This document shows, piece after piece, positions 18,063 through 35,169 of a DNA stretch of 64,000 nt (the first letter of the stretch is position 1; every line of letters begins with the position of its first letter). The DNA comes from Dehalococcoidia bacterium (GTDB lineage Bacteria > Chloroflexota > Dehalococcoidia > Bin125). The notes under the pieces were generated by a model that worked only from the letters and a program-made list of their open reading frames with translations, did no database searches and was not told the origin of the DNA. The DNA is taken from positions 972,806-1,036,805 of the forward strand of contig CBDCPP010000001.1 in assembly GCA_965220315.1 (NCBI GenBank), written 5' to 3'. Position numbers and translations under genes: made by a program.

Positions 18063-18138
18063 GGGCCGCTAGCTCAATTGGAAGAGCAGCTGACTCTTAA
18101 TCAGCCGGTTGTAGGTTCGAGTCCTACGCGGCTCACCA
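18063..18138 (+). tRNA. tRNA-Lys (anticodon CTT); integration target of the adjacent element
   Basis: GGGCCGCTAGCTCAATTGGAAGAGCAGCTGACTCTTAATCAGCCGGTTGTAGGTTCGAGTCCTACGCGGCTCACCA. Cloverleaf with anticodon loop CTCTTAA and encoded CCA. Confidence 0.92.
18093..18138 (+). repeat. attL core, which is the 3' half of tRNA-Lys and is repeated at 25441..25486 and 26262..26306
   Basis: 46-nt segment ACTCTTAATCAGCCGGTTGTAGGTTCGAGTCCTACGCGGCTCACCA. Direct repeats downstream have 3 and 4 mismatches. Confidence 0.8.
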
Positions 18139-27555: not shown

Positions 27556-28359
27556 GTGCAAAACCGCTACGTCGGCGATATCGGGGACTTTGGCAAGTAC
27601 GGGCTGTTGCGGTCCCTTTCCGGACTGCGATCTGATCGCAGCTCTGATGTGCCGTTGCGCTTGGGTGTCGTCTGGTATCTCTACCCGGACGAAGCTCACA
27701 ACGCCGACGGTAAATTCACTGACTACCTTGCCGGTACCCCGGGTAACTACTCCAGGTTTCAGGCCTGCGATCCCCTGCTCTACCAGGCGCTTCGCCAGTT
27801 GGTGGCCGAAGACAGCCGTGGTATCGCCGCGGTCCGCCGCAGGGGAATCCTGCCCGGCGACACGGCATTCTGTGAGCGCAGCCTGTTCTACGCACCCGGC
27901 TCGTCGCGAGCTGCAAGACAGGCAATCCGCGAAAACTGGATCGAAGAAGCTCTCGAAGTCACCGCCGAGTCGGATCTGGTTTTCTTCGATCCCGACAACG
28001 GCGTCTCCGACCCAGCCAGCGGCATCGCGAAGACGGTGAACCCTTGGGACGTGAAAGGTCCCAAGCATGTGCGGCTCGACGAACTGCGCCGTTTCTCGGA
28101 GCGGGGCCAAAGCCTCGTCATCTACCATCACCTGAGCCGCCACGGCACAGCGGTTCAGCAGATCCGCCGCGTTTCCAAGACCCTGCGTTCGAGCCTTCGT
28201 CCGGCCTGCCGCCTGTGGTCACTGCGGTACCGCAGGGGAACGTCGCGCGCTTTCTTCGTTGCTGCGCAGAAGCAGCACGAGTCCATTCTTGAGAATCGGC
28301 TGGCGAGTTTCTTCGACGGCCCGTGGGGCACGCGCAAGCATTTCGAGTTGGTCGAATGA
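27556..28359 (+). CDS. conserved-looking hypothetical protein of unknown family (possible PD-(D/E)xK-like DPD...WDVK motif)
   Basis: GTG start with GGGAG SD. 267 aa, soluble. N-terminal YVGDIGDFGKYGLLR. Central LVFFDPDNGVS...NPWDVKGPKH. No family assigned. Confidence 0.6.
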   Translation: MQNRYVGDIGDFGKYGLLRSLSGLRSDRSSDVPLRLGVVWYLYPDEAHNADGKFTDYLAGTPGNYSRFQACDPLLYQALRQLVAEDSRGIAAVRRRGILPGDTAFCERSLFYAPGSSRAARQAIRENWIEEALEVTAESDLVFFDPDNGVSDPASGIAKTVNPWDVKGPKHVRLDELRRFSERGQSLVIYHHLSRHGTAVQQIRRVSKTLRSSLRPACRLWSLRYRRGTSRAFFVAAQKQHESILENRLASFFDGPWGTRKHFELVE

Positions 28360-28376: not shown

Positions 28377-30015
28377 TCAGTCGTGAAGCAGGCTCTTCGC
28401 GAGCAGTCTTGCCTCGTCCAGGTTGTCCACGAAGTGTTCCCCGGGAACCTGTTTGAGAGCGTTGAGGGCGTGGAGGGTTTTGGCGACGGAGGCGGAGAGG
28501 TTCATCACGATGCATTCCGTACTCTCTTCGCCGGCGGTTTCGATGAGCTGCTCGATGACCAGGGCGGCGCTGTCGTCCATGTGCGTGGCCTTTGAGAAGT
28601 CGAGGATCACGACCTCGTGTTCCCGAATGTCGGCGCCGATCACCCGGACCAACTCATTGGCGGAGGCGACGGAGAAGCGCCCCCGCAAGGCGACGAGCCC
28701 GGCGCGGGCTAGGTAAGGATCCGCCTCGGCTGCGTCCGCCTGGTTTGGAAAGAATGTTTGGTCCAGCAGAGGGACGGACACCACGTTGTCGAGCTCGAGC
28801 CGTTCGTACTCCTTGGAGTGTGCGATTCCTGCGGCGACGAGCCCCAGGGCGACGGCCGTCACGAGATCGACGAACACCGTGAGGGCCAGGGTGGTGATCA
28901 TCACCAGGATGTAGTCGCGTCGGATGTGGCGAATACGGGTGAGGAAACGCCAGTCGATAATGTCCCAGCCGACTTTCAGGAGAATGCCGGCGAGGACGGC
29001 ATGCGGGATCGGCTCGGTGACCTCTCCGATACCCAATACCAGGGCTAACAGGATGCCCGAGCGCAAGACGCCGGAGAGCGGAGTGCGGCCTCCGGCGCGG
29101 ATGTTGACTACGGTGCCCATGGTGGCCCCGGCGCCGGGAAGGGCGCCGATCAGGCCCGCGATCAAGTTGCCCAGCCCCTGGCCCATGAGTTCACGGTTGG
29201 GCTTGTGCCGTATGTGGGTGAGGGAGTCGGCTACGAGCGCGGTCAGCAGGCTGTCGATGGAGCCGAGGAGAGCGAGGATGAAAGCCGGTTGTAAGGCGTC
29301 CGCGAGGAACCCGGGCGCGAGTTCCGGCAGTTGCAAGTCGGGCAAGCCCGTCGGTACCGCTCCGATGATGGGGGCATCACCGAACCAGGCGAGCGCGAAA
29401 AGAGTGCCGGCGATCAATGCGCCGAGAGGGGCGGGCAAGAATTTGCGGAGTTTGCGAGGCCAGAAGATGCAGACCGTCAGTGCAATGGCGCCGACGGCGA
29501 GGGCGTCCGGGTTGAGATTTGTCACCGCCTCGGGCCAGGCGCGGACGGAATTGAGCGGCCCGCCCGGGACGGTGGGGGTGCCGAGCAATGGCAGGATTTG
29601 GATCACGATGATGATGATGCCGATGCCGGACATGAATCCGGAGATCACGGAGTAGGGCGTGTAGGCGATAAAACTGCCGACTCTCAGCGCGCCCAAGGCG
29701 AACTGAAGCAACCCGCCCAGCATGACGATGGTGAATGCTTCGGGAAGATTGTCGGCGTGTTGGGTGACGACCACCGCCATGGCGATGGTCATTGGCCCAG
29801 TGGGGCCGGAGATCTGAGAGGGCGTCCCACCGAAGACCGCCGCGAAGAAACCGACGGCGATCGCGCCGTAGAGGCCGGCGATAGGCCCGAGGCCCGAGGC
29901 CCGACGCCACGCCAAAGGCCAACGCCACCGGCAACGCCACCACGGCCGCCGTAACCCCGCCGAAGACATCTCCGGAGAGATCCTGGGATTTGTAGAAGTG
30001 ACGCATTTTGGACAT
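28377..30015 (-). pseudogene. SulP-family anion transporter with C-terminal STAS domain, frameshifted by expansion of a 7-nt tandem repeat
   Basis: ORF 29377..30030 (N-terminus ...VALPVALAFGVASGLGP) and ORF 28377..29969 (...ASGLGPIAGLYGAIAVGFFAAVFGG...STAS) are consecutive SulP pieces in different frames. Removing one AGGCCCG unit restores VASGLGPIAGLY in frame. Confidence 0.85.
29884..29904 (+). repeat. (AGGCCCG)x3 heptanucleotide tandem repeat inside the SulP gene. Two copies would be in frame
   Basis: Plus strand reads ATAGGCCCGAGGCCCGAGGCCCGACGCC. Read directly from the sequence. Confidence 0.9.
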
Positions 30016-31124
30016 GAGTGGTGTAGGCAAAGGGATTGTGACGGAATTCCTGGAGCAAGCTACCTTCAGGAAGGCTCAGGACGAGGATGAGCGCGCTTGC
30101 CGTTCAGGAAATTGGCACGTGGCCAGCAGGATGACGGAGAGACCCAGTCGTATCAATATGAACGGCAGGTGCACGCTGATAGCGAGGGCTGCGGATGAGT
30201 TCTTTCGTCTGTCAGCGCTCCGGATTTTGCGGAGGAACGTGCGTGACCGGTCTGAGCTACCGGTCCAATCGGGCGAGCTTCCCCTCTTGATCTGACATAA
30301 TGTGTGACAACGGCACGGATACCAAGGCGTCCGAGACAACCACCAGGGGCCCAGCTGCCGGAACGAGAATGCCTGCTTCTGTGGCGGGCATTAACTCTAT
30401 GGGGGCATTAACATGACGCGCGAGGTCATCGTTCCTGCCAACCAGGCCGGCCATCACCAACCGAGCAGTGGTGATACGGGTATCGTTCCCAGCGGCTTGA
30501 TTGCTGCCGGTGCTGTGCGGATGGCTTGCCTTCTACAGATCCCGCATCACTTGATAGGGCCACAGCCACCACAGAATCGGGCCGCATCACTACGCCACCC
30601 CCGCTTTGGAGAGAACCGTTGCTCGTGGGCTCCCAACGTCACGAGCTTCGCCGACGCTCGGTGTAGCCACAGGTAAAACGCGATCACGGTAGCGGCGACA
30701 TCGCGATGGTGAGGCCGCCGATCACCAGGATGAGGAAGAGGTAAACCATAACCCTGGATCCGCATCACCCTGGACCGCCAACTCGTCGAAGATCAGTGGG
30801 CCGAGTGCAAGGTCGAGCCTCCCGGCCAGGTCGAAGTCGGCGATAACCAAGAGGGTGATCACTATGCGAAAGAAGGTGTCGAGGCTGAACAGACCCAACA
30901 GGTCCGCAGTCGCCTTTGCTCGCACCCGGAGCGACCGCTACTCGCGCTTGGGCTTAGAAAGTTGGGTTCACCGTTGGAGGCCGCTCCCGTGCTCCGGCGC
31001 GGCGCCAGACGGCTATTCTTTTTAGAATGCTAAGAAGAAGGCTGCGAATCACAACGCAGGGGCAGTACTGACCACAGCTTCCTGTCCAAGCTTTTCATCT
31101 CTTAGTGGCCCGATTCGAGGCGTC

Positions 31125-32975
31125 ATGCAGCGCGATCGCATTCGCAATTTCAGCATTATCGCCCATATCGATCATGGCAAGTCGACTCTGGCCGATCGCC
31201 TGCTCGAACTCACCGAGACCGTCGCCGAGCGCGCGATGGCAGCGCAGCTCCTCGACTCCATGGAGCTCGAGCGCGAGAAAGGCATCACGATCAAGGCCCG
31301 TGCTGTACGCATGGCCTACACCGCGCGCGATGGCTGCGCGTACCAGCTTAATCTGGTCGATACCCCGGGCCACGTGGATTTCACCTACGAGGTCTCGCGC
31401 TCACTCGCCGCGGTGGAAGGCGCGCTGCTCGTTGTCGATGCTGGCGAGGGCATTCAAGCGCAGACACTTGCCAATGCGTACATGGCGTTGGAGCAAGACC
31501 TCACGATCATCCCCGTCGTCAACAAAATCGACCTTCCCGTCGCACAGCCCCAGCAGGTAATGCGCGAGCTGGTCGATGTGATCGGCTTCAGCGAGGGCGA
31601 GATCCTCTTTCTCTCCGCCAAGACGGGATCGGGCGTGCCCGAGTTGCTCGAGGCGATCATCCAGCGCCTGCCGGCGCCCGCAGGCGACCCAGCCGCTCCG
31701 CTCCGCGCTCTTCTCTTCGACTCTGAATACGATGCGTACAAGGGCGTGCTTGCCTACGTGCGCGTGGTGGATGGGGGGATCGCTGGCAGCGCGCCGCTGC
31801 GTCTCATGCAACGGCAGCGCAAGCTGGAGCCGCTCGAGCTCGGCACATTCACGCCGGAGCTCGCGGCGCGCTCTCGCCTCGACGCCGGCGAGGTCGGCTA
31901 CGTCGCCACTGGCTTGAAGGATGTCGCCGACGTGCGCGTTGGTGACACGCTGACCAGCGTGGCGAGGCCTGCTGCCCAGCCCCTGCCTGGCTACACCGAG
32001 GCCAAGCCGATGGTCTTCGCTGGCCTGTATCCTGCCCAATCCAGTGAGTATCCGGCGCTCAAGGCGGCGTTGGAGAAGCTGCGTCTCAACGATGCCTCCC
32101 TCCACTACGAGCCAGAGACCTCGGTTGCCTTGGGCTTTGGCTTCCGTATGGGCTTTCTCGGCCTCCTCCATATGGAGATCGTGCAGGAGCGTCTCGAGCG
32201 TGAGTACGATATCGCGCTAGTTTTCACTGCGCCCTCTGTTGAGTACGAAGTCCTTGCCAGCGACGGTACCGTCCGCCGGATCGATAATCCGGCCGATCTG
32301 CCGGACCCCAGCCGCATCAGTGAGGTGCGCGAGCCCTGGTTGCGCCTCAGCGTGATCACGCCCAACAGCTACGTCGGCACTGTGATGGAGTTGGTAATCG
32401 GTCGCCGGGGCCGCTTCGACAAGATGGAATATATCGATCGCGATGTCTCTGCCGTGGATGCTGGTCGCCAGCGCGTTCTTCTGGAGTTCGAAGCGCCCCT
32501 GGCCGAGATCCTGGTTGACTTTTACGACGAGCTGAAGTCGGGAACGCAGGGCTACGCCAGCCTCGACTACACCCTGATCGACTACCGTGCCGCGAAGCTC
32601 GTCAAGCTGGAGATCTTGGTCAACGGCGAGCCGGTCGACGCGCTTTCCAGCATCGTCCACCGCGCCCGCGCCGATGTGAGCGGTCGGGCTTTGGTCCAGC
32701 GATTGCGCTCGCTCATTCCGCGGCAACTGTTCGATGTGCCGCTGCAAGCTGCCGTCGGCGGCCGCATAATCGCCCGCGAGACGGTCAAAGCGGCTCGCAA
32801 GAATGTGCTCTCAAAGTGCTATGGCGGTGATGTCACTCGCAAGCGCAAGCTGCTGGCGAAGCAAGCCGAGGGCAAGCGACGCATGAAGCGCGTCGGCAAC
32901 GTGGAGATCCCGCAGGAGGCGTTTCTGTCCGTTTTGCGATTAAGTGACTCGAAACCCCGCAAAGCGCGTACCTAG
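31125..32975 (+). CDS. lepA: elongation factor 4 (translational GTPase LepA)
   Basis: [25 protein letters not shown]..., G1-G5 motifs and the LepA-specific C-terminal domain. 616 aa. Confidence 0.95.
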
Positions 32976-34582
32976 CTGGACCCTGCCTCTTCCGCTGCTA
33001 CCGGTAGAGGCGTCTCGGCCGCTCCGTCGGAGCCATTGCTCTCGTTGGATCGGCTCGTGCTAGTCGCTTGCGGGAGCGGTGGCGTTGACGTTGGCTCTGC
33101 GGCTTCTACCTCGAGCGCGGGCCCCGGCTCCTCGGCCACGCTCTCTCCTTCTACCTCGAGCGCGGGCCCCGGCTCCTCGATCACGCTCGCTCCTTCTGCC
33201 TCGAGCGCGGGCTCCGGCTCCTCGGTCACGCTCTCTCCTTCCGCCGCCTCTTCGATCACGACGAGACCCTCTGCGTCCAGGATGGTGCGGCGGATCGCCG
33301 CCAGGGTCTCCGCGTCGGCGCCCTCCAGTGCATGTCTGACCAGTTGGAACAGCGCCTCACCCGTGATGAGCGCGTAGCCGAAGTTTGCGCTGGCGTTGAT
33401 CAAGGTCTGGGACAGGGCCTCGCCGCGATCCTTCGGATGCAGGAGCCGCTTTCCGTTGACGGCGATTACGCCCTTGCGCAACACCCCACTGCTGATGAAC
33501 TCTTTTTCGATCCGGCGCTGCAGCTGGAAGTAACTCGACTCTTTGACCGTGTGCGACGACGCGTCCACCTCCAGCAGGGCGATCTCATCGCCGTCGGCTA
33601 GCTCGGCTGGCTCCCTGAGTTCGGGCGTCACCGTGAAGCCCAGTGCCCGGAACGCATCCCGTACCAGTGGCTCGAAGGCATATCGCCCTTCGCGCCACAG
33701 CAATCCTTGGTAGCGCGCCGCGTCGGTCAGCGCCGCTCGCATTTCTTGCAGGTGTCTCTCTGCTTCCACGAAGGTCTGCTCCGCCTGCTCAACCGTCTCG
33801 CGCAAGTCGCGCAGGTCTGGCAAGTCATATTTCTTGAGCCACGGCGGCGCCTTTTCCTCCTCTGGACTCTCGAGGCTGCGCAGCAGACTTTCCAGCAGCG
33901 CTTCGGTCACATTTCGCCGTGCGGCGCCGCGCGGCTCGGTGTTAGGCGGTGGGAGGAAAACTATTCGGCCTGCCAGCGCCTGAAACTCCACGGCCACGGC
34001 CGCGCCGCCCTGACTGCGCGCCAGCACCGTGCCCACGTTTTGGAAGCCGCTGATCGCGTTCACGTCCCACCAGGCCTGGAAGCGCAGCCGTCCGGCGAGA
34101 TCGTCCAAGTAGGCTGCGAATGCGTGTGCGCGATCGAGTGGTGCGAAGGTTCCGCCGCCCGCACCGGCCAGCAGTTGTGGCGGGCGGTAGACGACCCCGG
34201 GCGGGGCCGGCAGGATCGTGTAACGATCGGCTCCTGGGAGCGTCGACACTGCGGCATGCGGCACAGTTGGGTAGCCGAATACCGCCACCACCCCACCTCT
34301 CTCCAGCAGCAGCTGCAACTCACGGCGGCGCTGCTCCAACAGCTCGCCGAGGCCAAAATGGAAGGCGCCGCTAGCACCGGGCAGCACTGGCGTGCCGCTC
34401 GGTGTTTGATAGGTTCCACCGCTTGTCGCGCCAGCTCCTGCGGCAAGCTCCTCGATCTGCCGTGAGAGCGCTGCTGGATCGATCACACACGCGTCGTATT
34501 CGAATAGCGCCGGCGCGTTCGCGACCGAGTGGTTATCCACTTGCGGATCGGGGAGAGAGAATCCAAGCGATACGATTCGCAT
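32972..34582 (-). CDS. hypothetical protein. Roughly 420-aa globular part plus an acidic C-terminal region with 15-aa tandem repeats ([15 protein letters not shown])
   Basis: 536 aa, no signal peptide. Central segment ...[45 protein letters not shown]... is reminiscent of restriction-endonuclease-like folds, but no family assigned. Stop overlaps the lepA stop on the opposite strand. Confidence 0.65.
33103..33237 (+). repeat. 3 x 45-nt tandem repeat (plus a degenerate fourth unit), coding, inside the 32972..34582 gene
   Basis: Units start at 33103, 33148 and 33193 (CTTCTACCTCGAGCGCGGGCCCCGGCTCCTCGGCCACGCTCTCTC and variants). Produces spurious ORFs 33036..33377 and 33079..33339 on the plus strand. 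Confidence 0.85.
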
Positions 34583-35169
34583 TGTCGTTAAGTTCTCATT
34601 CCCATCAGATCTATACGGCGCGTCCCGCGGCCGCAGGCCGAAAGCGGCTAGCGTTTGTGCTCTGAGTTTACAATTCTATAGGACCTCTGCCCTTCCACTG
34701 CTGTACTGGTTTGCTCGTGGTGTAGGTAGTTGCTATATGTCGGCTCGCATCGACGCTTTGGATAGGCTGTTTTTTCAGATGCGCGCCTTGTCTGGCGCTT
34801 TTCCGATACTCTGATCACGGTCGTGCTAGGCGGGGAGCTAGCGGTGCCCTGGACCCGCAATCCGCTTTAGCGGGGTCGAATTCCCGCCTGAGGGCGTCCA
34901 CTGTGGAAACTGGCGCGGCTAAGCGGCGCTGAAGCTTGGGTCCCGTGCGGCGAGACGCTACGAACCCCGTCAGATCCGAGAGGAAGCAGCGGTAAGTAGC
35001 AGCTTTCGGGTGCCACGGGAGTGCCTGGGCTGAGTTGGCTGGTCGCGACAAGCCCGTGGCGGCGTTCGAAGGCGGGTGCACGGCCATTTTTAACAAACTG
35101 GACCGGTTCGACGGAGGAGCTGCTGTGCCAGTGACTGCGCCGTCCAAGAGGGGACAACAGCGGGATAGG

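Follow-up and report, generated by a model that had tools for sequence, protein, structure and literature searches.

A third copy of a 7-bp repeat in a BicA-like SulP transporter gene of a Dehalococcoidia bacterium: probably a young, inherited frameshift pseudogene

How should a gene be interpreted when it is broken into two reading frames exactly at a short tandem repeat? The question is raised by a SulP/STAS transporter gene in a 64-kb stretch of the genome of Dehalococcoidia bacterium GCA_965220315.1 (contig CBDCPP010000001.1, positions 972,806 to 1,036,805 of the forward strand), the whole of which is referred to here as the window. An earlier note on this DNA had placed the N- and C-terminal parts of the gene in different frames, with their junction at three copies of the heptamer AGGCCCG, and had left three options open: an ON/OFF contingency locus, a fixed pseudogene, or an error of assembly. 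The description holds good, as the gene is spread over two minus-strand ORFs, and a tblastn search with the repaired protein (the product after removal of the extra repeat unit) finds the same two frames, meeting exactly at the tract (29883-29903). Among the options, the evidence favours a fixed, heritable pseudogene and argues against both a contingency switch and an assembly error. The relevant features are as follows.

28377..30015, minus strand: SulP/SLC26-family transporter gene, BicA-like, probably a pseudogene; 1639 nt, made up of 543 codons, a stop and 7 extra bases
29883-29903, coding strand minus: perfect heptamer tract, AGGCCCG three times (unit CGGGCCT on the coding strand), read from the sequence
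29377..30015, minus strand: N-terminal frame in the three-copy state; 42 native residues (M1-P42), then 170 out-of-frame residues
28377..29969, minus strand: C-terminal ORF of 530 aa (P0001, the gene-caller version); 24 out-of-frame residues, then native S38-D543

On the plus strand, positions 29880-29909 read gat-AGGCCCG-AGGCCCG-AGGCCCG-acgcca, and Tandem Repeats Finder reports an array at 29883-29908 with period 7, 3.7 copies and 94% matches. In the disrupted gene the tract occupies codons 38-44; its counterpart in an intact gene would be codons 38-42, encoding S-G-L-G-P, so that the current allele is one unit in excess. Removal of one unit restores a single 543-codon ORF, starting at the ATG at 30015 and containing the motif FGVASGLGPIAGLYGAI, which bears out the expectation that two copies would put the canonical motif in frame. 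A check of copy numbers indicated that the frame is kept only by two or five copies, and five copies would insert seven residues into the conserved SGLGP motif. There is no other perfect three-copy tandem repeat with a unit of 4-9 bases in the 64-kb window, and a three-copy heptamer was present in none of 200 simulated sequences (first-order Markov). Two-copy heptamers, on the other hand, are at chance level in the window (7 observed, 5.4 expected). To explain the tract it is therefore enough to suppose that two copies arose by chance and were then extended by one duplication event. (A map of ORFs and GC3, intended to reveal further broken genes, proved too noisy for use in this DNA, which has 63% G+C.)

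That the repaired protein belongs to the SulP/SLC26 anion transporter family, with a Sulfate_transp domain followed by a C-terminal STAS domain, is confirmed by Pfam, in agreement with the identity first proposed: Sulfate_transp (PF00916) matches residues 13-371 with an E-value of 7.8e-84 (282 bits, cut-off 23.2), and STAS (PF01740) matches residues 437-533 with 6.9e-12 (45.5 bits, cut-off 22.6). The closest solved structure is that of BicA (PDB 6KI1; E 1.5e-109 over residues 11-386), further PDB matches being to SLC26Dg, SULTR4;1 and prestin. BicA, a cyanobacterial Na+-dependent bicarbonate transporter of the SulP family, shares the Sulfate_transp plus STAS architecture, but the gene discussed here is disrupted, and its repaired product scores 514.9 bits with the NCBIfam BicA equivalog model (NF050096), below the cut-off of 880 bits. 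We therefore describe the protein as BicA-like, without assigning a substrate to it.

Neither of the two ORFs would specify this protein in full. The N-terminal one (29377..30030, with the native ATG at 30015, in agreement with the start of the orthologue P0121) reads ...FGVASGLGPRAYRRP..., in which a SulP start, ...VFGGVTAAVVALPVALAFGVASGLGP, gives way to Arg/His-rich nonsense that continues to the stop; only residues 13-42 of its product match Sulfate_transp, at 21.4 bits, which is below the cut-off. The C-terminal ORF reads ...RRASGLGPIAGLYGAI...: it has an out-of-frame start, MSSAGLRRPWWRCRWRWPLAWRRA, continues SGLGPIAGLYGAIAVGFF... and has a normal C-terminus. This 530-aa ORF lacks the native first transmembrane segment, having an Arg/Trp-rich peptide in place of the first hydrophobic helix. 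Beyond the 7 extra bases, no other disabling lesion was found in the SulP gene.

In relatives the gene is intact. A scan guided by the protein, with each GTDB species represented by one genome, located 80 loci, nearly all of them in Chloroflexota/Dehalococcoidia MAGs, and in this comparison, which the earlier note had recommended, SulP proved to be one continuous ORF at every locus (80/80), with none lacking a frame elsewhere. The window's own species is absent from the GTDB species representatives, the best orthologue being 88% identical, and an exact-flank, variable-gap DNA pattern had no match among them. The nearest loci, L002 and L003 (88% amino acid identity), are syntenic with the window, sharing a gene for a 536-aa protein, LepA (95%), SulP and EamA (about 90%), and at the repeat site they have TCGGGCCTCGGTCCCATC, an imperfect pair of units, in frame. 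The ORF in the window is thus disrupted by comparison with intact orthologues in syntenic context, which is what identifies a frameshift pseudogene. With a degenerate pattern that covered the motif and left room for 0-28 extra bases, 20 SulP genes were retrieved from JGI metagenomes, all of them in frame and none with a three-copy allele or even two perfect copies; a perfect repeat was therefore present at the site in 0/80 genome orthologues and 0/20 metagenome relatives. From this absence it follows that the tract is not conserved, and there is no sign of slippage recurring at the site; the frameshift is apparently specific to the window's lineage. The orthologue P0008 has exactly the repaired motif, and P0002-P0007 and P0121 have it almost unchanged. 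Isolate names among them, COS3, RHO and SB066x for instance, resemble those used in series of sponge-metagenome MAGs, and the relatives suggest that the bacterium is sponge-associated. As a separate observation, N-terminal SulP fragments of 190-330 aa (P0150, P0163, P0176, P0179, P0183, P0185, P0193 and P0194) occur on contigs of 0.17 Mb to >5 Mb, and truncated SulP seems to be fairly common in related MAGs.

The most informative relative is the one closest to the window. P0121, the only other member of the 90% cluster to which P0001 belongs, is a protein of 543 aa from a 2.56-Mb ENA contig; it begins MSKMRHFY, as in the window, has the motif region ...GVASGLGPIAGIYGAI... and is identical to the repaired window protein at 532/543 positions. 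Between this sister genome and the window, neighbouring proteins show about 98-99% identity. With L002 and L003 as outgroups, amino acid replacements could be polarised (at the protein level only, P0121 being known as a protein). In SulP, 7 fell on the frameshifted lineage, 0 on the intact lineage and 4 were ambiguous, as against 7:10 (frameshifted to intact) for EamA, RrnaAD and the 536-aa gene combined; the difference gives a two-sided Fisher p of 0.019 (one-sided, 0.0099), on small numbers and replacements only. Two of the derived changes, A163T and V436A, affect residues shared by all other relatives examined, and a third, A178T, affects a residue shared by all but one of them. This pattern of seven substitutions suggests that the SulP gene has been under relaxed constraint on the frameshifted lineage.

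Is the third copy present in the organism at all, or could it be an artefact of sequencing or assembly, the true state being two copies and an intact gene? Doubts of this kind are prompted by the source of the sequence, which is a metagenome-assembled genome, and also by the abundance of truncated N-terminal SulP fragments on Mb-scale contigs, some of which could be assembly frameshifts. The answer lies largely in other assemblies. The 530-aa ORF P0001 is recorded verbatim on three contigs among NCBI and ENA protein records, the longest of 1.53 Mb. One carrier is a 148-kb contig of ENA assembly ERZ25072076, ctg242071_3x_l (L001, L082, L083 and L105), which has the same three heptamer copies and is 99.93% identical to the window across 12.1 kb, the differences amounting to 5 mismatches and 3 gaps. 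Leftward of window position 25320 the two diverge: a segment of 2.6 kb has been replaced, and beyond it are stretches only 95.6%, 97.4% and 88% identical to the window. The replaced segment and the diverged flanks indicate that this contig represents a different strain, and not the same assembly copied. A 774-kb ENA contig is probably the third carrier of P0001, by elimination: its flanking 306-aa and 93-aa proteins are the same as on the 148-kb contig, a neighbouring gene is present as a distinct allele of 551 aa, and no further SulP product of the species was found on it in the protein records or the P0001 cluster. Exact look-ups with the window's LepA, 267-aa and EamA proteins led to the 148-kb contig and to a 1.2-kb Logan contig that ends short of the repeat, and a protein search with the N-terminal 190 residues, aimed at partial genes of the species in further assemblies, gave a best match no closer than 84% identity. 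The neighbourhood that bears on the comparison of strains contains the following.

33103-33241, in the minus-strand gene 32972..34582: 45-bp in-frame tandem repeat, 3.1 copies (Tandem Repeats Finder)
27556-28359, plus strand: gene for a 267-aa protein with no Pfam match, between SulP and EamA
about 22814-25320: strain-variable segment, with plus-strand gene 23491..25239 for a 583-aa ankyrin-repeat protein (Ank, 3.9e-41)
26404-26488, plus strand: tRNA-Leu(TAG), between EamA and the strain-variable segment
17799-17875, minus strand: tRNA-Val
18063-18138, plus strand: tRNA-Lys
34821-35083, plus strand: large SRP RNA

Gene 32972..34582 encodes the 536-aa protein, which has no Pfam match; versions of 521, 536 and 551 aa, differing by one 15-aa unit, are found in related assemblies, and the 45-bp repeat is evidently a genuine coding VNTR among strains. 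The gene for the 267-aa protein is absent from L002 and L003, in which SulP adjoins EamA, and is represented by a 185-aa version in the 2.56-Mb sister genome. The ankyrin-repeat gene itself holds tandem repeats (216-bp at 24274-24857 and 189-bp at 23611-23973). In the strain of the 148-kb contig (L105, 12140-14728) its place is taken by an AAA_15/AAA_21 ATPase and a 139-aa gene, with a DEAD helicase and integrase fragments after them and flanking identity down to 95.6%; the tRNA-Leu(TAG) site may be an integration hot spot.

Returning to the possibility of an artefact, the second contig bears a 3x coverage label, and in the near-identical 12-kb block some reads might be common to both assemblies, despite the 5 mismatches and 3 gaps there. 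Nevertheless, the occurrence of an identical allele in distinct strains makes a random assembly error unlikely: the same 7-bp insertion is seen in a contig from a demonstrably different strain, and probably in a third contig too. The same assemblies resolved the whole-unit differences of the nearby 45-bp repeat, and the excess of replacements on the frameshifted lineage would be unexpected if the gene were intact. The usual error of long reads is a change in homopolymer length, from which the clean duplication of a 7-bp unit would be an atypical departure. We consider an artefact very unlikely on these grounds, and the three-copy lesion appears to be a real inherited allele, common to distinct strains.

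We are therefore left with an allele to be explained, and the explanation that we prefer, with a probability of roughly 0.8, is that a BicA-like SulP/STAS transporter gene has recently been turned into a frameshift pseudogene, and one that is inherited, by one tandem duplication of 7 bp. In the ancestor, the codons TCG GGC CTC GGG CCT (S-G-L-G-P) would by chance have comprised two adjacent CGGGCCT units, and slipped-strand mispairing at replication could then have added the third. A ribosome translating the resulting message would leave the native frame after Pro42 and terminate after 170 foreign residues, while the downstream ORF, having neither the native N-terminus nor the first membrane helix, would not supply a complete 14-helix transporter. 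The lesion would have been inherited by distinct strains, the gene presumably drifting since; as there is no second disabling lesion, the inactivation is likely to be recent. Loss of one unit could in principle bring about reversion, although we see no indication of frequent or selected switching. The type of event is very familiar. Bacterial frameshift pseudogenes generated by slippage likewise have an extra unit of a short repeat, are lineage-specific and inherited, and then show signs of relaxed constraint; there is no essential difference from them here, and this is one more instance, itself new, in an uncultured Chloroflexota MAG.

Might the locus instead be a selected contingency locus, with heptamer slippage switching the transporter reversibly between ON (two copies) and OFF (one, three or four)? 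It has some of the attributes to be expected: a unit of 7 nt, not divisible by 3, lies inside an ORF and near its 5' end, as in phase-variable loci, and the gene has no other lesion. An ON-type protein (P0121) and OFF-type alleles occur among genomes about 98-99% identical in neighbouring proteins, and three heptamer units reach the permissive threshold used for the detection of simple sequence repeats (SSRs) in Haemophilus influenzae (PMC2651432). Known heptanucleotide systems, though, look different. In Escherichia coli K1, the capsule O-acetyltransferase gene neuO contains (AAGACTC)n with 3-53 units, most often 20, and mixtures of 20, 21 and 22 units are measurable within a culture (PMC13001214). 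As in the SulP gene, a 7-nt unit is situated in the 5' part of an ORF, whose frame depends on copy number modulo 3, but the neuO repeats form a tolerated N-terminal extension and vary freely in number among strains, whereas here there are three units in a conserved membrane motif, constant in the readable assemblies. The heptanucleotide SSRs of H. influenzae hmw1A and hmw2A are also tandem repeats that change by slippage, but these are present in 13-38 copies, in promoters, where they modulate transcription (PMC2651432), and not in three copies within an ORF.

The properties of the tract itself argue in the same direction. Three units barely attain the threshold of detection and fall short of a hypermutable length; a tract maintained by selection would be expected in relatives, and 0/100 of them have a perfect repeat at the site. 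What it encodes is not a dispensable leader but GLGP, a conserved motif of the membrane core, and the sole other in-frame length, five copies, puts seven residues into that motif. The window has no other three-copy repeat with a unit length of 4-9. The state of the gene follows phylogeny, with near-identical assemblies OFF and a more diverged one ON, and the 7:0 asymmetry of replacements has the look of drift on the OFF lineage. The 45-bp repeat 3 kb away varies by whole units, but the heptamer count is constant wherever it could be read (three in both readable assemblies, n=2). To our knowledge, a housekeeping-type anion transporter is not typical of the classes of genes that are phase-variable. 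We accordingly consider a selected contingency locus highly improbable, and it is slightly harder still to credit that so minimal a tract of three units truly switches an anion or bicarbonate transporter ON and OFF at a low rate, even though low-frequency two-copy or four-copy subpopulations are possible. If it did so, this would be a contingency locus in an organism other than a pathogen, affecting a metabolic transporter of a probably sponge-associated Chloroflexota symbiont, and frequent switching between two and three copies would raise the interest of the locus.

Finally among the alternatives, the idea that a functional protein is still made, whether by programmed +1 frameshifting, by transcriptional slippage or as an N-terminally altered transporter encoded by the 530-aa ORF, is extremely improbable in spite of the 506 downstream native codons that remain open and the overlap of the two ORFs across the repeat, for a +1 shift would be needed at GCC-U-AUC or CCU-C-GGG (neither of them a slippery motif known to us), RNA folding of 141 nt, taken around the tract and downstream of it, is no more favourable than that of shuffled sequences (z = -1.1), a promoter and terminator scan and an Rfam scan showed nothing near the SulP gene suggestive of recoding or a regulatory RNA, a recoded protein would hold two extra residues in the conserved GLGPIAG, the 530-aa ORF is without the first hydrophobic helix, and no orthologue is arranged as two frames, all being single ORFs.

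A frameshift pseudogene being much the best reading, the locus should be annotated as a SulP pseudogene, and not as the 530-aa 'SulP transporter' P0001, which is its out-of-frame remnant. For the organism, it would mean that one BicA-like anion uptake function has probably been lost in this sub-lineage while being kept in a 98%-identical sister genome, and the locus thus offers a small, datable case of gene decay in uncultured Chloroflexota.
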